From a virus (taxonomy: Duplodnaviria; Caudoviricetes), in the IMG/VR virus record IMGVR_UViG_3300034069_002177, positions 64,001-128,000 of that record: DNA of 64,000 nt; one strand, written 5' to 3'. The notes under the pieces are model-generated. The model saw only the letters and a list, made by a program, of their open reading frames with translations. It searched no databases and was not told where the DNA came from. Made by a program: the position numbers and the translations under genes. Within the stretch, counting starts at the first letter, position 1, and the number at the start of each line of letters is the position of its first letter. Positions 3,246 through 19,537 of the stretch are shown piece by piece.

Positions 3246-3317
<72 letters not shown>

Positions 3318-5249: not shown

Positions 5250-5296
5250 CGAAGGTTATAGGGTAGACATACCCGTTCCCTTTCACAATCAAAAGA

Positions 5297-5453
5297 TGGC
5301 GTGTGGCGCAATTTGGCTGACGCAGTGGACTAGTACCTAACCCCTACGACTGGTGAGTTGTAATGGCATGGACGGAATCCACCGGAAATAGGGAGGCATT
5401 GGAAACGATGTCCCACCCGAGGTTCCTTGCAGGTTCGAGTCCTGTCACGTTGT
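5297..5453 (+). ncRNA. enlarged tRNA-like RNA with insertions in anticodon loop and variable arm
   Basis: Acceptor TGGCGTG/CACGTTG, D arm GCG/CGC, AC stem GTGGA/TCCAC enclosing ~48 nt, ~46 nt variable region, T arm GCAGG-TTCGAGT-CCTGT. Confidence 0.6.
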
Positions 5454-5469
5454 CTTCGATTGTGCCTTC

Positions 5470-5542
5470 GGGTTTTTAGCTCATCTGGTAGAGCGCTGCT
5501 TTTGCAAGGCAGAGGTGAGGGGTTCAAGTCCCCTAAGATCCA
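5470..5542 (+). tRNA. trnA: tRNA-Ala(TGC)
   Basis: G3-U70; loop TT-TGC-AA; unusual G48. Confidence 0.93.
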
Positions 5543-5568
5543 CGAGTCAAAGAAACTTCGGTTTTGAT

Positions 5569-5598
5569 TTGACTTAGATAGAAATTGTCTGGTAGTGT
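5569..5598 (+). promoter_or_regulatory. sigma70-type promoter
   Basis: TTGACT-18 nt-TAGTGT. Confidence 0.5.
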
Positions 5599-5670
5599 TG
5601 TGATAACAACAACGGAACTTGAAAAGACAACAGTGGAAATACAAGCTCAACGAAATTGGTTGAGCGAAAT

Positions 5671-5757
5671 GGAGCCGTCGCATAGTGGCCTAGTGCACCA
5701 CCCTGCTAAGGTGGAGTACCCGCAAGGGTACCGTGGGTTCAAATCCCACCGGCTCCG
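5671..5757 (+). tRNA. trnS: tRNA-Ser(GCT)
   Basis: Long variable arm; loop CT-GCT-AA. Confidence 0.96.
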
Positions 5758-5951
5758 CAAAGACCGAATGAGTAACCCCTGGTACGGGTAAAAATTCAGT
5801 CCTCGCTCAAATCAGCATCATCGATGCGGCTTCCAGCCGTGAAGTTGGAAAGTACATCGAGGGTGGTACCACTGAAACGAGCAATTGCCTTGGATGACTC
5901 AATAGGGGTGCGAAATGACATAAGTCATGAGCTTCACTGAATAGGCATTAT

Positions 5952-6038
5952 GGAACCGTCGCATAGTGGTCTAGTGCACCACCTTGGAAAGGTGGCATAC
6001 CTGCAAGGGTATCGAGAGTTCGAATCTCTCCGGTTCCG
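5952..6038 (+). tRNA. trnS: tRNA-Ser(GGA)
   Basis: Long variable arm; loop TT-GGA-AA. Confidence 0.96.
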
Positions 6039-6237
6039 CGTTGTCGTCTTCCAAGCGACAATCCCGACAAACCTGGGTGAAGGGTTGTTCAATGATGGCT
6101 AAGAACTAAAACCGAGCCATTGTGTATTTTCTTCATTCTTGCACTGACTAGAATGTTGCGGTTGATCCCGTTAGGAAATCTACGGAACGGCTTCGGTTGT
6201 TTCGGGTCGTTAGGGTTTGATCACCCTTTCGACGCAT

Positions 6238-6311
6238 GCCTCGCTAGCTCAATTGGCAGTAGCATCTGACTCTTAATCAGAGGGTTCCCGGTTCAAGTCC
6301 GGGGCGAGGCA
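6238..6311 (+). tRNA. trnK: tRNA-Lys(CTT)
   Basis: Cloverleaf; loop CT-CTT-AA. Confidence 0.95.
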
Positions 6312-6745
6312 CAAAGTATCTTCGGATACTTGCAGTAAGACAAGGCTTCCATGTACGCCGCAAGGTATGTAGAGAAATCGCTTCGCATGGGTGAGTCTTA
6401 CTGAGAACGTAGAGATGCGATTAGAGGCGTTCTTTCCACACTTGTACACCGGATCGGTCCTAGGAGCCTATCGTCACAGACGGCACATCCGAGGGAGGGG
6501 TTGATGAACCCTTGTACGTATACATCGTCGCTTCAAGCACAGCCTCTGTGAGGAACTGTTGCCAGTTCGGACGTAACCCGAACGCTCGTAAGTTCACAGC
6601 CTATGTAGAGGGGCTGGTGGGGCGCAATCCCATTGCGGTTATGAAAAGCCGAAAACTTGCAGCATTTTCGTCATGTGCGGGGTTCAATTCCCCAAGGGCG
6701 TCGGCTCAAACCCGGCGCGGTTGGATTCATTACCGTGGCGAATAT

Positions 6746-6819
6746 GGTGGGCGTAGCTCAGTTGGTAGAGCGCTGGCTTGTGGAGCCGGATGTCGCGGGT
6801 TCGAGCCCCGTCGTTCACC
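6746..6819 (+). tRNA. trnH: tRNA-His(GTG)
   Basis: Encoded G-1 opposite C73; loop TT-GTG-GA. Confidence 0.95.
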
Positions 6820-6994
6820 CGAATTACGTTCTGATTCAGATACCAAAAAGGAATCAGAAAGTCATCGAACAGCTTGGTATCTCTGTTGTGGATGGTGTGA
6901 AGTCGTATCGAGTCATCTTTTGCGTCGGCAGGCGTTGATGACAGGTGATGCATTCCGAAAGGAACTGCCCGTCGATAGCTTCACATAAGTTTTT

Positions 6995-7085
6995 GGAGGG
7001 GTCGCATAGTCCGGCTTAGTGCAGCAGTTTCGAAAGCTGCCGTAGGTGTCACATCCTACCGTGGGTTCAAATCCCACCCTCTCCG
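6995..7085 (+). tRNA. trnS: tRNA-Ser(CGA)
   Basis: Long variable arm; loop TT-CGA-AA. Confidence 0.95.
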
Positions 7086-7195
7086 CAATAGAGTTCAAGC
7101 AGCCCTGATTACCAGGAAGCATAAGATGACACTTGGACCTAGATTTCTTCATCGACTAGCAGATTCGTTCTGACTTGTCAGATGAAGTAAGTAAT

Positions 7196-7275
7196 GCCCG
7201 ATTGGTGGAATTGGCAGACACGCTGGCTTTAGGTGCCAGTGCTTAGGCGTGAGAGTTCAAGTCTCTCATCGGGTA
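7196..7275 (+). tRNA. trnL: tRNA-Leu(TAG)
   Basis: Loop TT-TAG-GT; Leu-type D arm. Confidence 0.94.
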
Positions 7276-7421
7276 CGCACGGATTCACAAGACGACTGGT
7301 GCAATGGTCGTTGCATAGTGCCTTGTTGTGATGATGTTGCCGGTTGGATCGGTATTGCACAATTGCCCCCCAACAAATCAGGTCCACCGAACGTCGTGAT
7401 GACAGTGCGGTGGGCTTCTGA

Positions 7422-7495
7422 CGCTCAGTAGCCAAGATGGTAAGGCGCACCGCTCATAACGGTGTTACGCGGTGGTTCGAGTCCACCCTGAGCGA
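7422..7495 (+). tRNA. trnM: tRNA-Met(CAT), elongator or Ile2
   Basis: Cloverleaf; CACCG-CT-CAT-AA-CGGTG. Confidence 0.88.
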
Positions 7496-7732
7496 CAAAG
7501 GTGATGAGGAAGGTCTTGACTACACTCATTATCTAACGGGACGACCCGGCAAGGTCGCTTTCGGTTCTCAGGTTTATCCCGTACACCCCTGAGACAGCAG
7601 TGTGAAACCTTTTGCCGAGGGTTGCTGCATTTTGAGACAGAAGAATGCATGTGATGTTATTGCCTCCGCGCTGACCTCTCCATGTTGGATATCTGTCGGA
7701 TCCTAAGTTGGTCACACTCGGCTTAGTTGTCT

Positions 7733-7806
7733 GGCGCGTTAGCACAATTGGTAGTTGCAGCACCCTTTCACGGTGCAGGTTACGGGTTCGAGCCCCGTAC
7801 GCGTCA
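7733..7806 (+). tRNA. trnE: tRNA-Glu(TTC)
   Basis: Loop CT-TTC-AC; 5-nt variable loop AGGTT. Confidence 0.92.
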
Positions 7807-7822
7807 CGTTTCTTGTTGGTAC

Positions 7823-7852
7823 TTGACAAGATAGGTAAGTCACCTGTAAGGT
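7823..7852 (+). promoter_or_regulatory. sigma70-type promoter
   Basis: TTGACA-18 nt-TAAGGT. Confidence 0.65.
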
Positions 7853-7867
7853 GATAGTAGTAAATAT

Positions 7868-7941
7868 GGCGCTGTAGCACAATTGGCAGTTGCATCGGTT
7901 TCTCAGACCGAAGGTTGCGGGTTCAAGTCCCGTCAGCGTCA
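7868..7941 (+). tRNA. trnE: tRNA-Glu(CTC)
   Basis: Loop TT-CTC-AG; 5-nt variable loop AGGTT. Confidence 0.9.
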
Positions 7942-8070
7942 CGATAACCCAAACGCTCCGAGGAATGTCGGAATCACTGGCGGGTTAGATAACTAACGAG
8001 AGACACTACGTAGCCTTCCTCAGGAGGTCTTTCGTCCAGAGTCGCCTACTGAGGCGGAAGCGACTACCAT

Positions 8071-8144
8071 GCCATCTTAGCTCAGTTGGAGAGAGCGACT
8101 GTTTGAAAAGCAGTAGGTCACCGGTTCGGCTCCGGTAGTTGGCA
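8071..8144 (+). tRNA. trnF: tRNA-Phe(GAA)
   Basis: Loop TT-GAA-AA; one acceptor mismatch. Confidence 0.88.
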
Positions 8145-8171
8145 CACTGGTTCCTTTTAGGACCACGTTAT

Positions 8172-8246
8172 ACCCTTGTAGTTCAGTAGAGATTAGGGCG
8201 CTTGTCGATGAGACAGGAGGCGGTGGTTCAAGTCCACCTGGGGGTA
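8172..8246 (+). ncRNA. non-canonical tRNA-like element (loop CG-ATG-AG)
   Basis: Acceptor ACCCTTG/TGGGGGT, AC stem CTTGT/ACAGG, perfect T arm GGTGG-TTCAAGT-CCACC; G33. Confidence 0.6.
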
Positions 8247-8363
8247 CGGTTGAGAGACTTTGCAAGGTCTCGATGCAAGTTCGGCGGGAATTGAACCCGT
8301 GCGGGGCGCAAGCTACGGTTGTCGTATGAGGAAGCTTACTCAGATAGTCTTCGCGTAGCACAT

Positions 8364-8436
<73 letters not shown>

Positions 8437-8517
8437 CAAACGGTGAGAGCCACTGGTTCTTAGCCGTCTTATCTCTACATCAACATCCAATCTATAGATA
8501 CGGCGTTGCTGTAGGGT

Positions 8518-8591
8518 TCCCTGTTGCGACTAATGGAATATGTCGTCTTCACAAGAACGAAGAGATGCCAGTTCGACTCTGGTACGGGGAG
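8518..8591 (+). ncRNA. non-canonical tRNA-like element with 8-nt anticodon loop (ACAAGAAC)
   Basis: Acceptor TCCCTGT/ACGGGGA, D stem CGAC/GTCG, AC stem TCTTC/GAAGA, T arm GCCAG-TTCGACT-CTGGT. Confidence 0.6.
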
Positions 8592-8731
8592 CTTAGTGGT
8601 ACCGGCACAGGGTGTACAACCATCGTCGGTGCGGTCGGGAGTGATATCCCCTGACCAGTCGTGCTTGGAAGGCTGCGTAATGTAGTACGGGGTTCGATCC
8701 CCGTCATGAGCCACTTATACTTCTTCAAGGG

Positions 8732-8761
8732 TTGACCGGAATCAAGATGCCGTGATACCAT
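8732..8761 (+). promoter_or_regulatory. sigma70-type promoter
   Basis: TTGACC-18 nt-TACCAT just upstream of tRNA-Met. Confidence 0.6.
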
Positions 8762-8772
8762 TGAAGGCATAA

Positions 8773-8847
8773 TGCGGGGTAGGGCAGTTCGGTAGCCCGC
8801 CAGGCTCATAATCTGGAAGTCGCGTGGTTCAAATCCCGCCCCCGCAA
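8773..8847 (+). tRNA. trnM: tRNA-Met(CAT), initiator-like scaffold
   Basis: fMet-like D arm and loop CT-CAT-AA, but paired U1-A72 and no run of three G-C pairs in AC stem. Confidence 0.85.
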
Positions 8848-9069
8848 CGTTACAACGAAGATACAAACATCGAAGGGTTCTTGTATCGGGATTACTAGAA
8901 AGCGCAACCTGCGTGTAACTGGGTTGTGTTAGGTGGGGACCGTAAGGTTCGTGCCGACACCGGCAAGAGAACGAGACCTAGCGTGAGAGCGAGAGGTCAG
9001 GTGAATTGGTACTTCGTACCGCGAGAAGCCCGAGCTTAGATGCACACGTTCCACTTGCCGGTTTTGTTT

Positions 9070-9142
9070 GGGTCGTTAGCTCATCTGGTAGAGCGCTGCT
9101 TTTGCAAGGCAGAGGTGAGGGGTTCAAGTCCCCTACGATCCA
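9070..9142 (+). tRNA. trnA: tRNA-Ala(TGC)
   Basis: Near-identical to 5470-5542 apart from the acceptor stem; G3-U70; G48. Confidence 0.94.
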
Positions 9143-9242
9143 CGCTTCCTCTCCAATCACCATTCTCGGCTCATTACCTTGGATGGCGGAGAGCCCCCAC
9201 TTCGATACCGGTTACGGGGTGGGGGATAGAAGCAACCAATAT

Positions 9243-9316
9243 AGGGGTATAGCTCAGATGGTTAGAGCGCTTCGCTGATAACGAAGAGGTCTTCGGTTCA
9301 ATTCCGAATATCCCTA
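9243..9316 (+). tRNA. trnI: tRNA-Ile(GAT)
   Basis: Cloverleaf; loop CT-GAT-AA. Confidence 0.95.
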
Positions 9317-9346
9317 CTGCTCATTGTCACTTCTAGAATCTGGCGG

Positions 9347-9376
9347 TTGACAAAGAGTTACGACACACGATAAAGT
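9347..9376 (+). promoter_or_regulatory. sigma70-type promoter
   Basis: TTGACA-18 nt-TAAAGT. Confidence 0.7.
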
Positions 9377-9424
9377 GGTGGTCGCGGTAAACAGTCCGCA
9401 CAGGCTCTCAACATTGAGGGTTCT

Positions 9425-9499
9425 GGCGCATTAGCACAATTGGTTAGTTGCATCGCCCTTTCACGGCGAAGGTTACGGGTTCAAGTCCCGTATGCGTCA
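9425..9499 (+). tRNA. trnE: tRNA-Glu(TTC)
   Basis: Loop CT-TTC-AC; 5-nt variable loop AGGTT. Confidence 0.93.
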
Positions 9500-9500
9500 C

Positions 9501-9577
<77 letters not shown>

Positions 9578-9602
9578 CTTCCAAACCAATATCAGTTTGG
9601 AC

Positions 9603-9632
9603 TTGACATCTACACAAAGTTGTTGCTAAGGT
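9603..9632 (+). promoter_or_regulatory. sigma70-type promoter
   Basis: TTGACA-18 nt-TAAGGT. Confidence 0.7.
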
Positions 9633-9701
9633 TGTTCTATAAGCAAGAAAGAACAACACTTGGTAACTCCATAGAGAAAGAAATGCCGCGCAAGCGGTTT
9701 T

Positions 9702-9774
9702 GGCTGTATAGCTCAGGGGTGAGAGCACTTCGCTGATAACGAAGGGGTCGGTGGTTCGATTCCACCTACAGCCA
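9702..9774 (+). tRNA. trnI: tRNA-Ile(GAT)
   Basis: Cloverleaf; loop CT-GAT-AA. Confidence 0.96.
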
Positions 9775-9973
9775 CTCGGAACACAACAACTCGCATACCT
9801 GCCGGACCAATCATCTGAGCAGCGCGGGGCGGAATGTTCGTCTCGAAAGAGAAATCGGCGGTATCTAGCGGTCCTTGGTTGCAAGGGTGCCGCAAGATGG
9901 ATGAGTACCGAGCGTTAACCTCATCAGATGATACGAAGCGAGATTGATTACCAAGCTTCTAAGTCGTCAACAT

Positions 9974-10046
9974 GCCCCTTTAGCTCAGTTGGTAGAGCGC
10001 TACGTTTACACCGTAGATGTCATCGGTTCGAGCCCGGTAGGGGGCA
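9974..10046 (+). tRNA. trnV: tRNA-Val(TAC)
   Basis: Cloverleaf; loop TT-TAC-AC. Confidence 0.95.
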
Positions 10047-10252
10047 CTGCACCAAGCGGTTATGCATGACTGACTATGGTGCTTGACACATACCAAGTGT
10101 CTAGGCGGGGTTCCTGAATGTGACCTAGTTGTCGGTTGGCTCCAAACCGTCCCTTATGGACTACGAGGTTACCGCGTGTCCCGTTTAGCGTTCTTGCGTG
10201 AAGAGCGTTGTGGGTGTCCGTCTCAGTGGTACGAGACGTAATCCCACAGAAT

Positions 10253-10325
10253 GCGCCCGTAGCTCAGGGGATAGAGCGGTTGACTACGGATCAACAGGTC
10301 GGGGGTTCGATTCCCTTCGGGCGCA
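10253..10325 (+). tRNA. trnR: tRNA-Arg(ACG)
   Basis: Cloverleaf; loop CT-ACG-GA. Confidence 0.96.
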
Positions 10326-10340
10326 CGCAACACAAAGATT

Positions 10341-10581
10341 TTCAACCAACTGGACTGTCGCGGGCGAAAGCTTGAGGAAAGTCCGGGCACTTGACCAACT
10401 ACCGTGTGGTAGATGAACTCCGCGTTCATCGCTCAAGAACCACTAAGCCCAACCTAAAAAGCAGGGTGCAGGATGTGTGCAACGCCAAACAGTCTGAGGG
10501 AGTTGGTCTCCTGTGAAAGACGGGTAGGCGGCTGAGACAGATGACAGTCTAAAACAGAACCCGGCTTACGGGTTGGTTGAA
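10341..10581 (+). ncRNA. rnpB: compact RNase P RNA
   Basis: GAGGAAAGTCC (10374-84) and ACAGAACCCGGCTTA (10554-68); P1 10341-51/10571-81; P2 GGACTGTC/GACAGTCT; P7-like GACCAACT/AGTTGGTC. Confidence 0.9.
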
Positions 10582-10586
10582 TTAAT

Positions 10587-10670
10587 GCCCGCATGGCGAA
10601 ATTGGCAGCCGCGTTGCGTTCAGAGCGCAATGACCGAATGGTCGTCCGAGTTCAAGTCTCGGTGTGGGCA
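10587..10670 (+). tRNA. trnL: tRNA-Leu(CAG)
   Basis: Long variable arm; loop TT-CAG-AG. Confidence 0.94.
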
Positions 10671-10761
10671 CTGCTGACCTAGGTCAGCCACTAATGAAAG
10701 GCTACACGAAATGATGGACTCCACCTAACCCTCCTTTGTTGACTATACAAAGGAGGTGAAA

Positions 10762-10941
10762 ATGAGAAAATTCACATACACAGACACCCGCGACTGGAAG
10801 GTCGCTGATGTCGATGGCAAGGCTATGACCTTGCTCGTGACGGATGCAAAGGGCAACAAAAGGAACGTCGAAAAGTTCGACGGCTTCCGCTCTGCATCCA
10901 GAGCAGCCAAGAAGCTTGGTGGTTTCGCCGTTAGGGCGTAA
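10762..10941 (+). CDS. small basic hypothetical protein (59 aa)
   Basis: Strong RBS AAGGAGG upstream of ATG; phage-like codon usage. Confidence 0.7.
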   Translation: MRKFTYTDTRDWKVADVDGKAMTLLVTDAKGNKRNVEKFDGFRSASRAAKKLGGFAVRA

Positions 10942-11057
10942 CTAGGCTTTCAGATTTCTCCGGTGTGCGGAGAATGAAATACCCAGTCGTGGACCTTGCA
11001 GAAACGAAGCGGCTGGCGAGTGGTAGGCATGTACTGCACTGTCCTACCACTCAAAAT

Positions 11058-11130
11058 GGCTCTGTAGCTCAGTTGGTAGAGCGTTCGACTGAAAATCGAA
11101 AGGTCACCGGATCGATGCCGGTCGGAGCCA
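11058..11130 (+). tRNA. trnF: tRNA-Phe(GAA)
   Basis: Loop CT-GAA-AA; T loop ATCGATG. Confidence 0.93.
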
Positions 11131-11280
11131 CGACCGATTCCATACAGTTTTTGCGGACTGCGATGGATCTCACTACTAGCCACGGGTACTTCGTTGCGTG
11201 CTGAGTAGGACATGAGGATTGGTGCCTCATCAATGAATAGACTGGTTGGGATACCGCAAAATTTCCAACTGGTCGCACTA

Positions 11281-11354
11281 GCCTCGCTAGCTCAATATGG
11301 CAGAGCATCAGACTTTTAATCTGCGGGTTCTCGGTTCAAGTCCGAGGCGGGGCA
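11281..11354 (+). tRNA. trnK: tRNA-Lys(TTT)
   Basis: Cloverleaf; loop CT-TTT-AA. Confidence 0.93.
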
Positions 11355-11379
11355 CACATCATTGGGATTCCAATGACTA

Positions 11380-11464
11380 GATAGTAGTGATGTAATTGGC
11401 AGCACGTCCGCCTTGTGTACAGAGGGCTAACGGAAGGAATCGACTCGAAATCGTTCTACTATCG
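11380..11464 (+). ncRNA. His-like degenerate tRNA with expanded anticodon arm
   Basis: 8-bp acceptor GATAGTAG/CTACTATC, D-arm motif TGTAATTGGCAGCAC, TCCG/CGGA enclosing 20 nt that include TT-GTG-TA; degenerate T loop CTCGAAA. Confidence 0.5.
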
Positions 11465-11590
11465 AAAACCGTGGCGTATGGTTTATTACGCAGTCACCGA
11501 AACATGGCGTAGGCGAAGCGCCCTAGAAGTTGGATTAGGTGAAAGGTGTCGGAAGCTCCCTCAGCAGGAGCCTAGTCTTGGTCACCATAT

Positions 11591-11663
11591 TCCTCTATAG
11601 CTCAATTGGCAGAGCAGTCGGCTGTTAACCGACAGGTTCGTGGTTCGAATCCACGTGGGGGAG
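11591..11663 (+). tRNA. trnN: tRNA-Asn(GTT)
   Basis: Cloverleaf; loop CT-GTT-AA. Confidence 0.95.
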
Positions 11664-11786
11664 CAATGCGAGTATCCGGTACGCAAGGTTGCAACGCTCG
11701 CAGAAGTCCTAACTTTCCCACAGCAGTCCGTGAGGGAAGTCAAGCAACGGAAATGAGAAATCATAGGGTTGGCGGTTAGGCAACAT

Positions 11787-11858
11787 GGCGATGTGGTGTG
11801 AGTGGTTAGCCGTTTCTCTGCAAAAGAAAATATGCCGGTTCGATTCCGGTCGTCGCCT
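11787..11858 (+). tRNA. trnC: tRNA-Cys(GCA)
   Basis: Loop CT-GCA-AA; U73. Confidence 0.9.
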
Positions 11859-11869
11859 CAATGCTCGAT

Positions 11870-11899
11870 TTGACTTTCACCGGTCAGTCGTTCTACCAT
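11870..11899 (+). promoter_or_regulatory. sigma70-type promoter (may also drive the downstream repeat array)
   Basis: TTGACT-18 nt-TACCAT. Confidence 0.65.
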
Positions 11900-11914
11900 G
11901 TTCTATATGAACAT

Positions 11915-11989
11915 GGGGTGATAGCCAAGCTGGTTAAGGCACCGAACTCATAATTCGACGATTCGTGGGTTCAAGTCCCACTCACCCCA
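11915..11989 (+). tRNA. tRNA-Ile2/Met(CAT)
   Basis: Cloverleaf; loop CT-CAT-AA; isotype (lysidine Ile2 vs elongator Met) not resolvable by eye. Confidence 0.88.
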
Positions 11990-12163
11990 CTCAACTTCAT
12001 CACTACTCCGATGAGGTAGGGTTCCGATAAGCACCATGTGTGCTAAGATTGGGGCTCGCAGAACCACCCGGTTCTGTTGTGTGCTGGATTCCGTGTTGTG
12101 CGCACGACGTGGAATTCATCGGTCGAAGTCCGACGTATGTAACCGACGAAACAGGTGCTACAT

Positions 12164-12236
12164 GCCCGTATAGCTCAGTTGGTAGAGCGCCAGCATGACT
12201 CGCTGGATGTCGGGGGTTCAAATCCCTCTACGAGCA
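12164..12236 (+). tRNA. trnV: tRNA-Val(GAC)
   Basis: CCAGC-AT-GAC-TC-GCTGG; atypical T37; one acceptor mismatch. Confidence 0.85.
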
Positions 12237-12252
12237 CTGCTTCTTGACACGA

Positions 12253-12519
12253 AGCTATTCCTGAGAAATCGGGATGTTCCGCCCTGACCTTCGCATTGTG
12301 AAGTTCCTTACCTCGGTTTGGATGAACCACTGCGACCCTTGGAGCCACCAAGTCCCTACTCCGGTAGGGATGAACCACCACGACCTTCGCGTCCACAATA
12401 TCCTCGCCTCGGCTTGGATGATCCTCCCCAACCTTCAGATTCATCACTTCCTCGCTCCGGCTTGGATGAACCGCGATGACCTCTACCGTGGGTACACTTT
12501 CGTTTCGACGGGAATTATG
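12253..12519 (+). CRISPR. delocalised degenerate type I-E-like array: 6 repeats, five 20-nt spacers
   Basis: GGATG at exact 48-nt period (12272, 12320, 12368, 12416, 12464); 28-nt units with 7-bp-stem/4-nt-loop geometry, e.g. CAAG-TCCCTAC-TCCG-GTAGGGA-TGAACC; degenerate terminal repeat ~12493-12519. Confidence 0.8.
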
Positions 12520-12528
12520 GAAATGGAC

Positions 12529-12558
12529 TTGACAGAGTATGGTCTGGTACTGTAAAGT
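12529..12558 (+). promoter_or_regulatory. sigma70-type promoter
   Basis: TTGACA-18 nt-TAAAGT. Confidence 0.7.
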
Positions 12559-12626
12559 GGTAAACGTCTTGTGAGAGCAAGACTTCGGAACTTCACAACA
12601 CAATAGCGTTTAGTAAGAAAGATTTT

Positions 12627-12700
12627 GCTTCTGTAGCTCAGATGGTTAGAGCGCCGCCCTGTCACGGCGGAGGTCGCCGGTTCAAGTCCGGTCAGGGGCG
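12627..12700 (+). tRNA. trnD: tRNA-Asp(GTC)
   Basis: Cloverleaf; loop CT-GTC-AC; core identical to 1719-1792. Confidence 0.95.
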
Positions 12701-12947
12701 CTATCAAAGGAACCGCGTTAGCGGGTTGCCTGCGATACAGCAAGACACCAGATACCGTCAAATATCTGGTACCCACACTTCTACCGTCGATGCGGTAGGT
12801 TCCGTTGACACGGAAGGATCGTTTCAAGTGAAGGTCTTGTACTTTGTTGGGCGTCGTCCTCCGGGACTGGCGCAGCCGATGGGTTCGGTTCCGTGACTCA
12901 TCTCCCTTTTATGCCGAGTGGTTGCAAACGCGAGGAAACGGAAATAT

Positions 12948-13020
12948 GGGGTCTTAACTCAGTTGGTAGAGTGCCTGCTTTGCAAGCAGGATGTCAGGAG
13001 TTCGATTCTCCTAGACTCCA
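12948..13020 (+). tRNA. trnA: tRNA-Ala(TGC)
   Basis: G3-U70; loop TT-TGC-AA. Confidence 0.95.
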
Positions 13021-13160
13021 CGTTGGTAGACGAAAGTCTTACCTTGGTAGATGAACACCTACCCTGCTCCAGTAATGGACAGGCTCCGAAGCAGAGATTC
13101 GGAATCCTACGTAAGACTGCTAGCGTCGCACATAGGAATATCGAGTCAAGTGTTCAACAT

Positions 13161-13231
13161 GGATTTTAGCTCAGTTGGTAGAGCACCTGCTTTCAAGCAG
13201 AATTTCGGGAGTTCGATTCCCCCATAATCCG
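13161..13231 (+). pseudogene. degenerate Ala-derived tRNA with 6-nt anticodon loop (TTTCAA)
   Basis: D arm and CTGC/GCAG stem resemble Ala(TGC) at 12948 but G35 is missing; mismatches in T and acceptor stems. Confidence 0.55.
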
Positions 13232-13375
13232 CGAACAAGAAGCTGTTGAAGTTTAGGGATTAACTACCCGAGTGCAGATACGTGTGTGTACTGTTTATAC
13301 CCTAGTCGCCGGTTAGGATGATGACTGCTTGGTAGTTCTTGCAGTGATTGTTCATGAATACGAGCTAGGCTCTGT

Positions 13376-13446
13376 GGGGATGTAGCTTAATGGTAAAGCC
13401 TTAGTCTTCCAAACTAATGACGCGGGTTCGATTCCCGTCATCCCCT
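13376..13446 (+). tRNA. trnG: tRNA-Gly(TCC)
   Basis: Loop CT-TCC-AA; U73. Confidence 0.94.
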
Positions 13447-13709
13447 CTGTGGCATCATCGAAATTACGGTGAAGGCTTCCTAACGCCTCTGTGTGAATCG
13501 CAGTGAAAAGTTAGGACTCTGCCGGAGTAGAGTGGTTGCATAGACTAAACCGGAAACAGGGCTTGCGGACCTGGGCGTGATACGGGATTCGGCTATCACA
13601 GACCTCTTTATGAGGCATATGGATGAAAGTTCCACAGTGAAGCATTTAGGAAATTCGAAGAATCCAAACGCGTTGGATGAAATCGTATAGACTAAGTGCA
13701 TCACGACAT

Positions 13710-13781
13710 GCGGATGTGGCGCAGTGGTAGCGCATAACCTTGCCAAGGTTAGGGTCGCGAGTTCGAATCTCGTCATCCGCT
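13710..13781 (+). tRNA. trnG: tRNA-Gly(GCC)
   Basis: Loop TT-GCC-AA; U73. Confidence 0.96.
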
Positions 13782-13949
13782 CGTAAGCAGCATTTGACTG
13801 CTAGGGCTTCTAGGATATCCATTGGGTATCCTTTTAGTCGAGATCCCGTCCAACCGCAAGGTTGGCGTAAGCGGTCGTTCAAATACACCTTCTCTAACTC
13901 CGGTTGGCATCGAAAGATGCGTTCTTGGGAAGCGTGTTAAACCGGATAT

Positions 13950-14021
13950 GCGGTCATAGCCTACGGGTATGGCAACTTGGCTTCCAGCCAAGAGTTGATG
14001 GTTCAAGTCCATCTGACCGCT
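13950..14021 (+). tRNA. trnG: tRNA-Gly(TCC)
   Basis: Loop CT-TCC-AG; U73. Confidence 0.9.
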
Positions 14022-14344
14022 CAAAGCCATCCAGAAGGCGGTATAAGCGAGTAACTAACGCCGATACCATCCGATGCTGGCTCATCCTTAGAATGGAACG
14101 TGGCGCTTGTGAGACTGTAGTGGTCAAGCACGTGTTACCGGAAATTCTCAGGCTCTGATTCTCGACTAGTAATCGGGAAGCGGGTTTGCTTCACCCGCCC
14201 TAGCTGCGACGAGTAGTGGCGAAGGAATAAGCACCTCAGCAATGCGAGGCTAAGCGTTGCCACTATTGGGTCACTGTTTACTAGACAAACCCTTTAGGAT
14301 TCGGTAAGCTAGAGACTAAGAAGCTTCCTAGCTTCCGAATACAT

Positions 14345-14439
14345 GGGACTGTAGCTCAAAAGTCACCCTCAAGGTGGCGGGTAGAGCAAGGAGCGGCGCG
14401 CGTTCCAGAAGGTTATCGGTTCGATCCCGATCAGTTCCA
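14345..14439 (+). ncRNA. Ala-like tRNA with hairpin inserted in D loop (loop GG-CGC-GC)
   Basis: Acceptor GGGACTG/CAGTTCC with G3-U70 and A73; D stem GCTC/GAGC enclosing GTCACC-CTCAA-GGTGGC; T arm ATCGG-TTCGATC-CCGAT. Confidence 0.65.
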
Positions 14440-14481
14440 CGGTCTTCTAGTCGTCCTTCGGGATGGCTAGAACTCCACCAT

Positions 14482-14556
14482 GCGAAAGTAACTCAGCGGT
14501 AGAGTTCCTCGTTGCCAACGAGGTTGTCGCGGGTTCGATCCCCGTCTTTCGCTCCA
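14482..14556 (+). tRNA. trnG: tRNA-Gly(GCC)
   Basis: Loop TT-GCC-AA; CCA encoded. Confidence 0.95.
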
Positions 14557-14641
14557 AGGTAGGAATTTGTCAAACGCAGCCCGGTGCCCTGACGACATCG
14601 ATGCTGTAGGGGTTCCTGCCTGTAACTTATTTTCATGATTT

Positions 14642-14714
14642 GCCCTCGTAGCTCAGGGGATAGAGCAGGAGCCTTCTAATCTCTTGGTCGCAGGTTCGAA
14701 TCCTGCCGAGGGCA
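14642..14714 (+). tRNA. trnR: tRNA-Arg(TCT)
   Basis: Loop CT-TCT-AA. Confidence 0.93.
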
Positions 14715-14815
14715 CAACGGTCGTCAATGGGCGTACACGACCGGGTTTACTTGGCGTCCAAAACAGGCGGCTTCCTATGAGTGTATGGAGGCTGATCCTC
14801 GACTCGACACTCACT

Positions 14816-14888
14816 GCGTTTGTAGCTCAGTGGATAGAGCAGTTGACTACGGATCAACAGGTCGGGGGTTCGAATCCCTCCAGGCGCA
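14816..14888 (+). tRNA. trnR: tRNA-Arg(ACG)
   Basis: Loop CT-ACG-GA. Confidence 0.95.
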
Positions 14889-14947
14889 CAGATTTGCATG
14901 GTAGCTGTCTAGCTGCTATGCTTTTCACGAGGGTAAAACCTTGAAAT

Positions 14948-15020
14948 GCCGACTTGGCGCAATTGGTAGCGCAACTGTCTTGTAAACAGTAGGTTGCGGG
15001 TTCAAGTCCCGCAGTTGGCT
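14948..15020 (+). tRNA. trnT: tRNA-Thr(TGT)
   Basis: Loop CT-TGT-AA. Confidence 0.95.
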
Positions 15021-15036
15021 CTCCGAAGGGATAATT

Positions 15037-15399
15037 ATGTACGACTTGTCATTCTCTGAATTTGACGACGAACCTCGCGCCCTCCCCATCGATGTAGCGC
15101 GTAATCGCATCGAGCCGTTGTTCCCGAATTTGAAGTTCACAAGTGCTGGCGGGTCAGTTCCCTTCCAAGCCGAGGGCTACTACATGGGTATCGCGGACTT
15201 TTACTTTCGGTTCCGACATGACTCGGCTAGTCTCACGATTGGTCGTCCTGGTCGGCACACCCCCGAAAATGATTTCGTCATCTACAAAGATGACGTGACT
15301 GGCGAGGATTACGCGGGAACGCTCGACGATGATGAATTTGTAGCGTTGTTCACGGAACTCATGGAGCGTATGCTTGCAGAGAAACCACTTCCTCGCTAA
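15037..15399 (+). CDS. hypothetical protein (120 aa, acidic)
   Basis: RBS GAAGGGA, protein-like composition, fills gap between tRNAs. Confidence 0.8.
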   Translation: MYDLSFSEFDDEPRALPIDVARNRIEPLFPNLKFTSAGGSVPFQAEGYYMGIADFYFRFRHDSASLTIGRPGRHTPENDFVIYKDDVTGEDYAGTLDDDEFVALFTELMERMLAEKPLPR

Positions 15400-15448
15400 G
15401 AAATAGACTGGTGATGGTCAGGTCAGAAATGAAGCAGCCATCATCTTT

Positions 15449-15521
15449 GCCCTTGTAGTTCAGCGGATAGAGCGTCATCTTCCGAAGGTGAATGTCGCTG
15501 GTTCGAATCCAGTCAAGGGCA
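15449..15521 (+). tRNA. trnR: tRNA-Arg(CCG)
   Basis: Loop TT-CCG-AA. Confidence 0.92.
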
Positions 15522-15757
15522 CAAGCAACACGAAGTGGCGATGGCAGGGTAAGTTGCAACGACTGTCACGCTCCCTATGCATGGGGTTGTGTTGTGAGGT
15601 GAAGGGAAATCACCAAATTCGTACTGGTCGTTCAAGTCAGGACTGCTTGTTAAAAGTGAGATGGGGGTATCGAATCCTTCCTAGTACGCCAAACTTCTTG
15701 TAACACGACCGGGTTCAGCCCAGTCGTGTGATATAGCCAGACACCGATGGTGTTTAT

Positions 15758-15829
15758 GCCACTTTAGCTCAGGGGTAGAGCAAACGCTTCGTAAGCGTTA
15801 GGTCGTCAGTTCAAATCTGACAAGTGGCT
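15758..15829 (+). tRNA. trnT: tRNA-Thr(CGT)
   Basis: Loop TT-CGT-AA. Confidence 0.95.
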
Positions 15830-16089
15830 CGGAATCGGGAACAAGGTCTCTCGGTAACGGACAGGTACAAAACGAGAACCCAGTGCACATGGACTCGCAC
15901 AAAATCCTGTTACCGTTTCGGTGTCCGTCTTCTTACGTTTTCGGGCACCGAACATTCTTCGAGGTTCAGCACTCGACGTATTTCATCTCAGGATACGGTA
16001 CGATACCAAAGGCTGGTCGGAGGTACACCGAAGGTAATCTGTTAGTGCAGATGATCAACCATGCACAGCGCGGAGTGATTCGCGTTTGT

Positions 16090-16161
<72 letters not shown>

Positions 16162-16197
16162 CGTAAAGACTGCTACGGTAGTTATTCACGAAAATAT

Positions 16198-16273
16198 GGG
16201 TTCTTAGCTCAGTTGGTAGAGCATCACGCTGGCAGCGTGAGGGTCAGGGGTTCGAATCCCCTAGGATCCACCA
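16198..16273 (+). tRNA. trnA: tRNA-Ala(GGC)
   Basis: G3-U70; loop CT-GGC-AG; CCA encoded. Confidence 0.95.
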
Positions 16274-16302
16274 TATAGACACCTTGACGAAACGGACCAA
16301 AG

Positions 16303-16776
16303 TTGACCGAGCTAGTAATCGCTCCAATGAATGTCGAAGATATTCAGTCCGTTATCGACCATGTAACCAATGTATCCCTAGCTTCGTCGCATCTCGACCA
16401 CCCCAATATCGGTGCATGGCTTGAAGGTGAATACAATCCTGCTGATGTACTCGCAAAGCTTGATTCGAGCATCTGTCTCATTGTGAGAGATAACGAGCAC
16501 ATTGTCGGTACCGGATTCATCGATACGACAACTGGCTACATTTCGGGTGTCTATGTCTCCAATAAGGGACACGGTACTGGTCGTTTGATTGTCGATAGGT
16601 TGCTTGAAGAAGCAGCAGCAGAGGCTGGTACGAAACACTTCACTGCGAGTGTTCATCCTGACTCGAAAGCCATGCAGCACATTCTTTCAACGTCTGGTTT
16701 CACGGCAACGCATGTGGACCCTCACGTTGTTTACTATGTTGGTACCGACTTCATGATTTGGGAAAAGTCGGTATAG
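16303..16776 (+). CDS. GNAT family N-acetyltransferase
   Basis: beta4/alpha3 acetyl-CoA motif VYVSNKGHGTGRLIVDRLL; C-terminal AMQHILSTSGF. Confidence 0.8.
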   Translation: MTELVIAPMNVEDIQSVIDHVTNVSLASSHLDHPNIGAWLEGEYNPADVLAKLDSSICLIVRDNEHIVGTGFIDTTTGYISGVYVSNKGHGTGRLIVDRLLEEAAAEAGTKHFTASVHPDSKAMQHILSTSGFTATHVDPHVVYYVGTDFMIWEKSV

Positions 16777-16782
16777 CAACAC

Positions 16783-16854
16783 GCCTCGTTAGTTCAGCGG
16801 AAGAATGCCTCTTTCCTAAAGAGTTGGTCGCTGGTTCGAATCCAGTACGGGGCA
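16783..16854 (+). tRNA. trnR: tRNA-Arg(CCT)
   Basis: Loop TT-CCT-AA. Confidence 0.9.
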
Positions 16855-17209
16855 CTGGGAAAACACCAACAGATTCGATTAGTCATCGAGGAACTAAGTT
16901 GGTGAGGGTGGTCGTTCACCGTGAAAAGAACGATGTCTGGTGATGTAGACGAGGTACCTAGCCTGAATCACAAGCGGATGAGACGGTTAGCTGGTTGGTG
17001 GACGCTCGATAAGGGTGGTTTCCGTACTCGCTGATTTGTGGGGTATAGATTCCGAATACTGCGACCCATCGTGGAAGACAACAAGCGGCTTGACTGGTCG
17101 CCCAAGTGACAAGTGTGGTGGAAATCCACTAGTAATCAAGAGCGTGGTACAGGGATCATAACCCTGCCTCCGTGAAGGTTTTAAGCCGGAGCGGCTTGGT
17201 TGCGATTTA

Positions 17210-17283
17210 CGGAGTATGGGAAAATTTGGCAATCCGCGCCGTTCGGGACGGCGAGAATGAGGGTTCAAATCCCTCTACTCCGA
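17210..17283 (+). tRNA. trnP: tRNA-Pro(CGG)
   Basis: C1-G72; loop TT-CGG-GA. Confidence 0.92.
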
Positions 17284-17377
17284 CATGGGGCGAGTGAGTC
17301 CGCGAAACCTTGGTGTTGACAACACAAGTAGACGTGGGCGCGGTCGCGTGTTTTCTCGACACCCTGTATCGTCAAAT

Positions 17378-17634
17378 GCAGTAGGGTTGAGGAACAGAAA
17401 TGCGGGCAGCAATGTGCCGCTACCGTAGGTCGAGACTACGGCGCTCCACCAAACTTTTGACACAGATTGGTCAACCCCGGCGCTTTAGGGGCTGAGAACG
17501 GCTCACAGAGCCAGTGGTCGTGGGCGAAGCGTGAAGGCATCCTGGGTAAGTCCTTCCGGCAAGCTACCAACGCGAATTCTGAGGTTCATGTCTTGGAAGT
17601 GCTGGGGACGTGGGTTCGATTCCCACCGACTGCA
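17378..17634 (+). ncRNA. large structured RNA closed by a tRNA/tmRNA-like acceptor and T arm
   Basis: GCAGTAG pairs (6/7) with CGACTGC-A after GGGGAC-GTGGG-TTCGATT-CCCAC; internal hairpins such as CCGTAG/CTACGG. Confidence 0.4.
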
Positions 17635-17660
17635 CAACGTCAGCAATGCGCTGACCGTAT

Positions 17661-17734
17661 GGTGTTCGTAGCTCAATTGGCAGAGCGGCAGGTCGTGAAC
17701 CTGTTCGTTGCGGGTTCAAGTCCCGTCGTCCACC
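17661..17734 (+). tRNA. atypical tRNA-His-like (loop TC-GTG-AA)
   Basis: G-1/C73, canonical D and T arms, C33, two acceptor mismatches. Confidence 0.65.
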
Positions 17735-17766
17735 TGAAACGATACCCTTATCGTCAAAAGGAATAA

Positions 17767-17840
17767 CAGGATGTAGCGCAGTTTGGTAGCGCGCCAGTTC
17801 GGGGAACTGGAGGTCGCGGGTTCAAACCCCGCCATCCTGA
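17767..17840 (+). tRNA. trnP: tRNA-Pro(GGG), C33 variant
   Basis: C1-G72; CCAGT-TC-GGG-GA-ACTGG. Confidence 0.85.
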
Positions 17841-18016
17841 CACTTATCGACATCCGTTAACGAATGACACCGTACTGTTTTATGGTATAAACACCCCAAT
17901 AGAGGGGTGGTTGTTCGATAGCGGGTACATTCCACATAAAAATGGCTTGACAGATGAGACAATTTCATACACGGCAAAATGGTTGCTGTATCTACATCCG
18001 AAAGCTCATCCCGACC

Positions 18017-19537
18017 ATGCTCCCAACTTCCCGCCAACTACTCGTTGGAGACTCCGCTGAAAACAGCATCATGCAGACAATTACGATTGCTGTTTCAGCA
18101 ATCCTTATTGCCGCTGGTCTTGTTACCGCTCCGGGTCTTATCAACAACGCCCGCGACAACAACGCCACTTCTGACTTGGCTAACGTAGCCTACGCTCAGG
18201 AAGGTGCGCTTGCTGTTGACGGCAAGTACCACTCTGACATCGATCCTAAGTCAACTGCTGATGATTCCCTCATCAAGACTGGCGGTGTCAAGTACACCTT
18301 CTCGGGCAAGACGACCAATCAGGCTGCATTGACTTGCGATACGCCAACCGCTGCCTACCTCATTCGCACAACCGCTGCTAATGGCAAGACTTTCTACCGC
18401 GCATCCGGTTCTGCTACGACTTCTACGGACCTTTCCAAGCTCACCATTGCAGATTGCATCAAGGCGCTTCCGGGATGGACCAGCTTCGAGATTCCTCAGC
18501 CCTCCGCTGGTGGCTCAACCACACCTTCTGCTGGTGCTTTCGTTGTCAAGAATCTCGCTAACCCCGGTCTTCGCTCCGCTGTTGCTAGCAACGGAAAAAT
18601 CTACGGTACGTTGAACTACGGCGCTCCTGACACTACTCAGTCGCCCGACCAAGACGGCAACCAGCCCGAACTTCCTCTAGATTTGCGAATTTCTTCTGAC
18701 AACGGTGCTACATGGTCAAGTGCAACTGGTCTACCTTCTAACCAGTTGATGGACAACATCCACGCTTCTGCGGATGGTCAAACCATCATCTTGACGCCTG
18801 GTGACAGCAACGGTCTCTACATCTCACACGATGCGGGCGCTTCATGGTCTCGCGTTGATGCCGCTGGAGAAAACAACTGGAATGGCGCGGTCACGTTGTC
18901 AGATGATGGCAAGACTATCGTCCTTTCTTCCCAGGATCAGAACAACTTTGATTATGGTACTGGACAGAACACTGTTGTTCCTGGTGGAGCAATGATCTCG
19001 CACGATGGTGGTGCTACCTTCACTACCAAGAACGTTGGGTCGGGAAACGACTTCCACGCATGGGCAACTTCTTCTGACGGAAGCGTCATTTACGGTAATG
19101 CAAATGACGGCACATTGTACAAGTCAACCAATGGTGGAAACACCTTCACTGCTCTATCTACGAGCACTCAAGGTGACTCTGCCATCAGCACCAATTCTGA
19201 TGGAAGCAGTGTCCTGCTTGTTGACGGAAACGATAGAGGAAACAACTTGTCGCTTTCTACAAATGGCGGTCAGTCCTTCAAAAACATCTCTCCGACAAAT
19301 GATCCTGATAATCGTAGATTCTGGTTCAAGTCGGATATGAGCGCCGATGGCAACACCATTGTTGTTGGTGATGGCAATGGTAACCCTGATTCATATATCT
19401 CAACCGATGCTGGTTCGACGTGGACCAAGGTTGACGGTACTTCTGGTCAGATCGGTTCAGTAAGTGTTTCTGCTGATGGTAAGACTTTCACAGTAACCGA
19501 TTCGAACAACCGCAGCACCGCAGTTGGTACCCGCTAG
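18017..19537 (+). CDS. type IV pilin-like N-terminus fused to BNR/Asp-box repeat (beta-propeller) domain
   Basis: Hydrophobic helix IMQTITIAVSAILIAAGLVTAPGL then SDLANVAYAQE; six S-x-D/N-x-G-x-T/S-W/F boxes; start codon uncertain. Confidence 0.7.
   Translation: MLPTSRQLLVGDSAENSIMQTITIAVSAILIAAGLVTAPGLINNARDNNATSDLANVAYAQEGALAVDGKYHSDIDPKSTADDSLIKTGGVKYTFSGKTTNQAALTCDTPTAAYLIRTTAANGKTFYRASGSATTSTDLSKLTIADCIKALPGWTSFEIPQPSAGGSTTPSAGAFVVKNLANPGLRSAVASNGKIYGTLNYGAPDTTQSPDQDGNQPELPLDLRISSDNGATWSSATGLPSNQLMDNIHASADGQTIILTPGDSNGLYISHDAGASWSRVDAAGENNWNGAVTLSDDGKTIVLSSQDQNNFDYGTGQNTVVPGGAMISHDGGATFTTKNVGSGNDFHAWATSSDGSVIYGNANDGTLYKSTNGGNTFTALSTSTQGDSAISTNSDGSSVLLVDGNDRGNNLSLSTNGGQSFKNISPTNDPDNRRFWFKSDMSADGNTIVVGDGNGNPDSYISTDAGSTWTKVDGTSGQIGSVSVSADGKTFTVTDSNNRSTAVGTR

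Follow-up and report, generated by a model that had tools for sequence, protein, structure and literature searches.

The 64,000-nt window analysed here, positions 64,001 to 128,000 of the IMG/VR virus record IMGVR_UViG_3300034069_002177, carries a CRISPR-like array embedded in a long run of tRNA genes, and this array very probably encodes functional guides that recognize tRNA genes of the host. The guides are 19 nt long and read antisense to tRNA positions 34–52; five occupy the array, and a sixth follows cas6e in a type I-E cas3-cas8e-cas7-cas5-cas6e operon located 38 kb away on the same element. Four of the six (S1, S4, S5 and S0) match tRNA genes of Microbacteriaceae at 15–16 of the 16 positions read by Cascade, and the mismatches that remain are concentrated at every sixth nucleotide. 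We favour a reading in which these guides would lead Cas3 to degrade the host chromosome while the element lives on its own tRNAs, and we assign this whole chain a probability of about 0.6.

Array anatomy and guide targets

The array is strictly periodic. Anchors of the form GGATGWWCC recur at 12272, 12320, 12368, 12416 and 12464, a spacing of exactly 48 nt, and the segment 12253–12520 resolves into six 28-nt repeats (R0–R5) and five 20-nt intervals, each made of one free nucleotide and one guide. Every repeat folds as RNA into a hairpin of 5–8 bp that closes a 4-nt loop, and a handle of the form AT(G/T)WWSS (ATGAACC type) comes next. R2 has the textbook form of a type I-E repeat; R0 and R5, at the two ends, are degenerate but retain the hairpin. 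The features of the array and its immediate surroundings are as follows.

899–17841, plus strand: tRNA array of 64 tRNA genes and a transfer-messenger RNA (tmRNA) gene, with the CRISPR-like array embedded in it (ARAGORN)
12164–12237, plus strand: tRNA-Val(gac), directly 5' of the array (ARAGORN)
12253–12280, plus strand: R0, degenerate, hairpin with GAAA loop, handle ATGTTCC (repeat alignment, RNA fold)
12281–12300, plus strand: free nucleotide 12281 and guide S1 (12282–12300), antisense to tRNA-Ala(CGC) 34–52 (target search)
12301–12328, plus strand: R1, weakened hairpin, handle ATGAACC (RNA fold)
12329–12348, plus strand: free nucleotide and guide S2 (12330–12348), best target tRNA-Pro(GGG) (target search)
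12349–12376, plus strand: R2, perfect type I-E-like stem of 6–8 bp, TCCG loop, handle ATGAACC (RNA fold)
12377–12396, plus strand: free nucleotide and guide S3 (12378–12396), in the register of tRNA 34–52 (target search)
12397–12424, plus strand: R3, weakened hairpin, handle ATGATCC (RNA fold)
12425–12444, plus strand: free nucleotide and guide S4 (12426–12444), antisense to tRNA-Arg(ACG) (target search)
12445–12472, plus strand: R4, weakened hairpin, handle ATGAACC (RNA fold)
12473–12492, plus strand: free nucleotide and guide S5 (12474–12492), antisense to tRNA-Val(CAC) (target search)
12493–12520, plus strand: R5, terminal, TTCG-loop hairpin kept, handle degenerate; also kept in the related locus L023 (RNA fold)
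12529–12558, plus strand: sigma-70-like promoter for tRNA-Asp (12627–12701), marking the 3' end of the Val-plus-array unit (motif; a similar motif occurs in L023)

Within the array the repeats are ~60–70% alike, hairpin and handle being the only conserved features. A Cas6e-type hairpin followed by a 5' handle is present in R0–R5 and in the cas6e-adjacent repeats. The near-identical repeats and rapidly exchanged 32–33-nt spacers of canonical arrays are absent, the guides being shorter and conserved between lineages. The array lies between tRNA-Val(gac) and tRNA-Asp inside an 18-kb tRNA run; no Rfam family matched between these two tRNAs, and no guide unit other than this array and the cas6e-adjacent one was found in the full 203-kb record. 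A sigma-70-like promoter is present 3' of R5 and none 5' of R0. Since no promoter-like site separates tRNA-Val(gac) from R0, the array probably shares the tRNA-Val transcript, and the precursor of the CRISPR RNAs (crRNAs) would then be co-transcribed with that tRNA. R5 may supply the 3' hairpin of the S5 crRNA.

A preliminary description of this DNA, made from the letters alone, had proposed a periodic array whose guides lie in register with tRNA 34–52 next to the T-loop, and the 48-nt period together with GTTC after every target confirms it. Dropping the first nucleotide of each interval, as it did, is likewise justified, for that nucleotide differs from a relative in five of five units. The interval it gave, 12281–12492, does contain the guides, but the full array spans 12253–12520 with its degenerate first and last repeats; and the six spacers it spoke of are five in the array, the sixth lying after cas6e at 57791–57809.

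Guide reverse complements were compared with tRNA positions 34–52, and masked searches ignored guide positions 6, 12 and 18; the target samples were 185,579 species genomes, 101 Microbacteriaceae, 301 Actinomycetota and 151 genomes of the order, with ~550 Actinomycetota genomes overall. Against the element's own tRNAs (13–15 of 20 positions at offset 0) and against a complete host set, the reverse complements start at tRNA position 34, and GTTC (G53-T54-T55-C56) stands directly after every target, placing 5'-AAC-3' beside the protospacer. The exact S5 string followed by GTTC had no match in the 185,579 species genomes. Masked at positions 6, 12 and 18, it returned at least 120 loci, nearly all of them, among the matches listed, in Microbacteriaceae, with genera including Microbacterium, Cryobacterium, Leifsonia, Clavibacter, Salinibacterium, Rhodoglobus, Frigoribacterium and Rathayibacter; the target is tRNA-Val(CAC), mismatched in these listed matches at positions 12 and 18 only. 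S1 is directed to tRNA-Ala(CGC), with mismatches at 12 and 18 only (30 of the 101 Microbacteriaceae genomes), S4 to tRNA-Arg(ACG), with mismatches at 12, 16 and 18 (55 of the 101), and S0, the cas6e-adjacent guide, to tRNA-Glu(TTC/CTC), with mismatches at exactly 6, 12 and 18. Reversed-pattern controls for S1, S4 and S5 gave no match, which, with none against at least 120 matches for exact and masked S5, excludes chance. Three genomes (G088, G060 and G021) each hold the S1, S4 and S5 targets, and G088 also holds that of S0. Loci fetched from the predicted hosts have a guanine-cytosine (GC) content of 67–70%, as against 51% in the element, a difference that fits an element carrying a complete tRNA set of its own.

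The assignments proposed in the preliminary description, S1 to Ala, S4 to Arg(ACG) and S5 to Val(CAC), are borne out, and the 15/19 match it saw between S5 and a Val gene of the window near 10007–10025 is correct, the gene being Val(tac). Its alternatives for S2 and S3 were His or Pro; Pro stands, as Pro(GGG) for S2 and loosely Pro(CGG) for S3, and His found no counterpart. The search masked at 6, 12 and 18 that it proposed did return tRNA genes with an AAC protospacer-adjacent motif (PAM), overwhelmingly in Microbacteriaceae, but gave no good targets for S3 and, in part, for S2.

Across guides and targets, 11 of 14 mismatches fall at positions 6, 12 and 18, a concentration that none of 2,000,000 random placements reached (permutation P < 5e-7). 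As a control, the element's 63 tRNAs were compared with their best host counterparts over the same 19-nt segment, where 49 of 333 differences (15%; expected 16%) fall at these positions; the guides depart from this divergence at Fisher P = 4e-7, indicating that tRNA evolution does not by itself produce the periodic mismatches. In type I R-loops, one base in every six is flipped out and hence unread (PMC9881144). The guide mismatches follow this 6-nt rule, as the preliminary description had expected of Cascade, and the pattern would be the signature of selection through type I R-loop formation and Cascade binding. Since position 18 pairs with the middle anticodon base, the guides spell anticodons absent from any real cognate tRNA. 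AAC, which the same description had named as a PAM used by type I-E systems, is documented as such: it supports interference in E. coli in a spacer-dependent manner (PMC4678831), and the type I-E system of V. cholerae has it as its optimal PAM (PMC12767519).

The unread positions have regularities of their own. All six guides have A at position 6 (12287, 12335, 12383, 12431, 12479 and 57796), as do those of relatives, even where the Glu target has A, and position 12 is a purine in 6/6 guides here and in 4/5 guides of the L023 array.

The element's own genome holds no good target. Outside the spacers, whose flank is the CCN of the repeat, every site in the 203-kb record differs from the guides at three or more read positions. 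The nearest AAC-flanked self site is the element's own tRNA-Val(tac), mismatched at 8, 14 and 19. Its cognate Glu, Pro, Arg, Ala and Val genes carry 3–8 read-position mismatches, and ARAGORN finds neither an Ala(CGC) nor a Val(CAC) gene in the element. The Asp, Gly-GCC and His tRNAs of the element are almost identical to those of the host in the 34–52 segment, and no guide is aimed there. Targets are likewise absent from the tRNA regions of relatives, apart from their own spacers.

Effector operon, relatives and known systems

All five operon genes match their NCBIfam/Pfam families above curated cut-offs, and the single-guide unit directly follows them.

50277–53210, plus strand: cas3, 977 aa, HD nuclease and helicase motifs (NCBIfam/Pfam)
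53207–55261, plus strand: cas8e/cse1, 684 aa, with a C-terminal extension; TIGR02547/PF09481 (NCBIfam/Pfam)
55263–56381, plus strand: cas7 (casC); TIGR01869/PF09344 (NCBIfam/Pfam)
56385–57128, plus strand: cas5e (casD); TIGR01868/PF09704 (NCBIfam/Pfam)
57125–57760, plus strand: cas6e (casE); TIGR01907/PF08798 (NCBIfam/Pfam)
57762–57840, plus strand: one-guide array 3' of cas6e, comprising a repeat (handle ATGTTCC), free nucleotide 57790, guide S0 (57791–57809) and a terminal hairpin repeat

The HD, HH and helicase I/II motifs of Cas3 are conserved when aligned to structures 4q2c and 4qqw, and Cas3 (HD plus superfamily 2 helicase), Cas8e, Cas7e, Cas5e and Cas6e make up a type I-E effector module. 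The cas6e-adjacent repeat shares the ATGTTCC handle of R0, and the design of its unit matches that of the main array. Cas1 (PF01867) had no match across the 203-kb record, which is possibly part of a larger contig, nor beside the operon in relatives, and TniQ had none in the 203-kb record.

Cas7 falls in a tight clade of metagenomic homologues (52–76% identity), with bacterial type I-E Cas7 standing apart at ~40%. Three diverged relatives keep the five-gene operon with its gene order and neighbours, including nrdI/nrdE just downstream, and the cas6e-adjacent guide is conserved in operon-bearing relatives. Of 29 loci from a metagenome scan, only L023, L026 and L029 contain orthologous tRNA-embedded arrays. 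Between the window and L023, the 19-nt guides are identical at 85 of 95 positions (89%), the repeats at 118 of 168 (70%) and the free nucleotide at 0 of 5; S1 and S5 are unchanged, and S4 differs at position 12 only. Because the free nucleotide differs in all five units and never needs to pair, it acts as an eighth nucleotide of the handle. Guides more conserved than repeats are the reverse of what an adaptive array shows and mark the guides as the part under selection; the repeat stems covary between the two loci through compensating changes. R2 (12349–12376, between S2 and S3) is almost identical to R3 of L023 (between S3 and S4), whereas the positional counterparts differ, which suggests exchange or conversion of repeats between units.

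Beyond this clade, INPHARED contained no close relatives, only single tRNA genes in Microbacterium, Arthrobacter, Mycobacterium and Synechococcus phages. A Cas7 peptide scan of IMG/VR found no relative, a three-anchor array pattern met only unrelated coding tandem repeats there, the exact S5 guide had no match there, and reads in other metagenomes gave short, near-identical fragments and no new lineage. In the relatives, nrdI and nrdE lie a few kb beyond a gene for an ArdC-like anti-restriction protein with a metalloprotease domain, which stands 3' of the cas operon here (59480–60523, plus strand) and is kept in relatives (L003, 13885–14919).

With the canonical type I-E systems of E. coli and Thermobifida fusca the element shares the Cas3, Cas8e, Cas7, Cas5e and Cas6e families, a hairpin followed by an ATxAACC-type handle, unread sixth positions and an A-rich 5' PAM. 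It differs from them in having neither cas1/cas2 nor a separate cas11, in guides of 19 rather than 32–33 nt, in mutually diverged repeats, in guides that are fixed and conserved instead of acquired, in targeting cellular housekeeping genes and in an array of which one part follows the cas operon and the other lies in a tRNA array 38 kb off. Phage CRISPR-Cas systems directed against host-cell sequences (the ICP1 type I-F system against PLE, and those of huge phages) are likewise effectors carried by mobile elements. Arrays of huge phages target host sigma-70 and glycyl-tRNA synthetase genes, for which Al-Shayeb et al. proposed a link to translation takeover (PMC7162821). ICP1 and huge-phage arrays, however, have normal repeats and normal-length spacers of the turnover type, whereas the guides described here are short, hard-wired and conserved, and address one gene class in one register with a structural motif as PAM.

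Homing guides of CRISPR-associated transposons (CASTs) also resemble the guides of the element, being fixed, conserved, set between degenerate repeats, short or partly mismatched, aimed at or near tRNA genes and tolerant of sixth-position mismatches (PMC11656645, PMC9881144). CASTs, in contrast, lack Cas3, carry TniQ/TnsABC and address one attachment site; association with TniQ, TnsB and TnsC and loss of Cas3 define them, whereas the element has an intact Cas3, no TniQ match and six tRNA guides. CreA and cr-like RNAs also combine degenerate repeats and a conserved short guide with a non-immune type I Cascade (PMC8501985; 10.1101/2023.03.03.530964), but their guides match a promoter in their own locus partially and repress it, whereas four guides of the element match host genes fully at read positions. 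The shortened-spacer Cascades of E. coli are laboratory constructs (PMC5159557), in contrast to a natural system built around 19 nt, a length at or below the E. coli interference limit. In the literature we found no phage or plasmid CRISPR system whose fixed guides are directed against tRNA genes themselves. A Thermus Cas12r phage preprint was considered as a precedent and set aside, as it concerns elements integrating at tRNA genes and not guides against them.

Proposed mechanism and competing explanations

In the mechanism that we favour, the main array and the cas6e-adjacent unit would supply six hard-wired crRNAs to the type I-E system, devoid of adaptation genes, that the element encodes. 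Cleavage of the hairpin repeats by Cas6e would release RNAs of ~48 nt, each with an 8-nt handle (ATGAACC plus the free nucleotide), the 19-nt guide and a 21-nt hairpin, and these would assemble a shortened Cascade. On a Microbacteriaceae tRNA gene, the guide would base-pair with the sense strand, starting at position 52 and running back to 34, and the invariant T-loop G53-T54-T55 would provide 5'-AAC-3' on the opposite strand as PAM; since this GTT is invariant, a single PAM fits every tRNA gene. Recruited Cas3 would then nick and degrade the host chromosome from several dispersed, hard-to-mutate sites, the element meanwhile living on its own 64 tRNAs, tmRNA, RtcB ligase, ribonucleotide reductase and replisome. 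That Cas3 is intact and conserved favours cleavage and degradation over silencing, and the position of RtcB next to the tRNA array, and of nrdI/nrdE next to the cas operon in relatives, speaks for the mechanism as a whole. Expression, processing, a shortened Cascade, AAC as PAM and degradation as the outcome are steps that we infer from sequence.

Several observations weigh against this chain. Two guides fit poorly. S2 differs from its best target, tRNA-Pro(GGG), at 10, 12, 15 and 18, two of these being read positions, and S3 fits tRNA-Pro(CGG) loosely, with 2–3 read-position mismatches. S3 had no near-perfect target in the ~550 sampled Actinomycetota genomes or in IMG/VR and none within 3 mismatches in the 101 Microbacteriaceae, and its masked pattern with one further mismatch met a single, non-tRNA, match in the 301 Actinomycetota. 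It does match the nine PAM-proximal positions of tRNA-Pro(CGG) where T47 is present, as in G088, and a relaxed pattern, in which the anticodon bases were left unspecified and taken as CGG, found a tRNA-Pro(?GG) variant in 15 of the 151 genomes of the order, leaving a read mismatch at 10 and, for a CGG anticodon, another at 19. Position 6 is mismatched in only one of the six guides, and its constant A means that unread positions are not free to drift; they look constrained by something besides pairing, perhaps the Cas7 pockets. R1, R3 and R4 have two internal stem mismatches each. No RNA run containing the locus was found, so that expression and processing of the guides are predictions, and it is the guide targets alone that place the host in Microbacteriaceae.

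The complex itself raises further points on this side. In E. coli Cascade, crRNA length sets the number of Cas7 subunits and shortened complexes assemble and bind, although interference requires spacers of >20 nt, and those of <=20 nt bind without it (PMC5159557). A natural 19-nt guide set against this limit implies either an adapted complex or binding without cutting. No separate cas11 (Cse2) gene was found. The C-terminus of Cas8e gave a weak match to PF09485 (Cse2) (E = 0.033, below cut-off), and its AlphaFold model is of low confidence (pLDDT 60) with no fold match; a Cas8e–Cas11 fusion is possible but unproven, which counts against the chain.

The main rival, itself unlikely, is that Cascade binds without cutting, blocking transcription of host tRNA genes or marking the sites while Cas3 serves other guides or is weakly recruited. 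As tRNAs are long-lived, shutting off their transcription would bring little short-term gain. Four guides match over their full length at read positions, more than a repressor would need, the HD and helicase motifs of Cas3 are intact in all four lineages, and no guides besides these six were found. In favour of binding alone are the good match of S2 and S3 in the PAM-proximal half only, a conjugative or plasmid-like lifestyle, which favours a non-lethal effect, the behaviour of E. coli spacers of <=20 nt noted above (PMC5159557) and the example of degenerate mini-CRISPRs such as CreA, which repress without cleavage (PMC8501985). Competition between elements is far less probable; here the guides would strike rival phages or integrative elements whose attachment sites contain tRNA genes or the 3' halves of tRNAs. 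Attachment sites frequently copy a tRNA gene from the anticodon to the 3' end. Identical sequences nevertheless stand in the host chromosome, so the host would be struck anyway; IMG/VR yielded only three S5-target loci, with host-like GC of 67–68%, one of which, with tRNA genes, shows a Val-Gly-Cys-Val cluster, and no target of S2 or S3 was found there. The tRNA regions of relatives also offer nothing to strike except their own spacers, even though viral mini-arrays usually target related viruses (PMC11656645).

More improbable still is antisense action at the RNA level, by which transcripts would pair with host tRNAs or pre-tRNAs and either tie them up or cause them to be cleaved, whether Cas proteins take part or not. 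In its favour, the guides run antisense to the tRNA itself and would be co-transcribed with tRNAs, and the preliminary description had named host tRNA genes, or possibly the tRNAs themselves, as targets; the genes are supported, but the molecules are not, since type I-E effectors act on PAM-flanked double-stranded DNA and a DNA PAM explains the fixed end at 52 beside GTTC. Plain pairing would neither tolerate nor concentrate mismatches at every sixth nucleotide, the middle of the anticodon included, and region 34–52 is structured and modified in mature tRNA. A decayed relic or a chance product, either a defunct CRISPR array or inverted pieces of tRNA that recombination left in the tRNA array, would account for repeats only ~60–70% alike, three weakened stems, the missing cas1 and the 38 kb to the cas genes. 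We rate it lower again, as conservation across lineages is higher in the guides than in the repeats, the hairpins covary, the mismatches are periodic and the matches are to host tRNAs rather than to the element's own. Least credible is a decoy of the RNA anti-CRISPR (Racr) type, in which repeat mimics soak up host Cas6e or Cas7: solitary or few viral repeats can act in this way (PMC11656645), but such decoys have no cognate effector and no conserved targeting spacers, whereas here matching effector genes are present, the repeats resemble the element's own cas6e-adjacent repeat and the sequences between them are conserved and targeted.

If the guides work as proposed, CRISPR would serve here not as immunity but as a weapon, built into the element, against the host. 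Its target class, tRNA genes, would be hardly mutable, with the T-loop PAM present in every tRNA gene of every host, and the location of a CRISPR array inside a tRNA array would be explained by an element that replaces what it attacks. It would also be a natural 19-nt mini-Cascade, bearing on the minimal size of a type I effector and on compact Cas3 tools. Repeat finders require near-identical repeats, and phage-spacer target searches require >24 bp with <=1 mismatch (PMC7162821, methods), so standard pipelines would miss such loci, and similar hard-wired guides may be widespread. The sixth-position mismatch signature would offer a purely computational test of Cascade function for other orphan arrays.

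The element and its further features

The record is labelled a provirus in IMG/VR, comes from a plant metagenome and measures 202,737 bp, with GC uniform at 51% to both ends. A 654,127-bp contig also lists the element's proteins, and relatives occur on contigs of 128–805 kb; the element may be much larger than the 203-kb record. Phage-like genes are present, namely RtcB beside the tRNA array, RNase H and the ArdC-like protein. The TerL_ATPase and HK97 capsid Pfam families had no match in the 203 kb, and a 926-aa VirB4-like ATPase is encoded at record position 147838; given these two results, we use the term virus-like mobile element, which covers both a phage and a conjugative element. It is possibly no lytic or classical phage, and killing the host would make little sense for a resident plasmid, which is a further argument against chromosome degradation.

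One way of joining these facts, which we hold to be speculative and rather unlikely, is a giant conjugative or virus-like replicon that makes the cell dependent on it through guided attack on host tRNA genes, by chromosome erasure or tRNA-gene replacement. Under erasure, a chromosome-less cell would be run on the element's tRNAs, tmRNA, RtcB, replisome and ribonucleotide reductase; under replacement, specific host tRNA genes would be deleted or silenced, and survivors would need the element's tRNAs, an addiction by tRNA-gene replacement. Either version, if true, would represent an evolved, escape-proof guide design, with a universal RNA structural motif as PAM and essential conserved genes as targets.

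Other features of the window concern translation. The tmRNA gene (4525–4914) lies within the element and encodes the tag ANASRNDFALAA. An RtcB-type tRNA ligase (20147–21493, plus strand; PHROG 1075, E = 2e-132) is encoded just 3' of the tRNA array. Together, RtcB and the tmRNA show a heavy investment of the element in keeping translation going. ARAGORN also reported oddities in the tRNA array (13161–13232 and 8172–8247), a tRNA-like gene whose anticodon has two bases and a tRNA-His(atg) whose anticodon is unusually placed.

Between the tRNA array and rtcB, a 527-aa protein (17954–19537, plus strand) with BNR/sialidase-like repeats had no INPHARED match. It proved unusable as an anchor for further lineages, since it belongs to a paralogous pseudopilin/BNR family. 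Its N-terminal part is common to dozens of paralogues on the same large contigs and also occurs in Frigoribacterium and Lacisediminihabitans, both Microbacteriaceae, some of these proteins being named pseudopilins by JGI.

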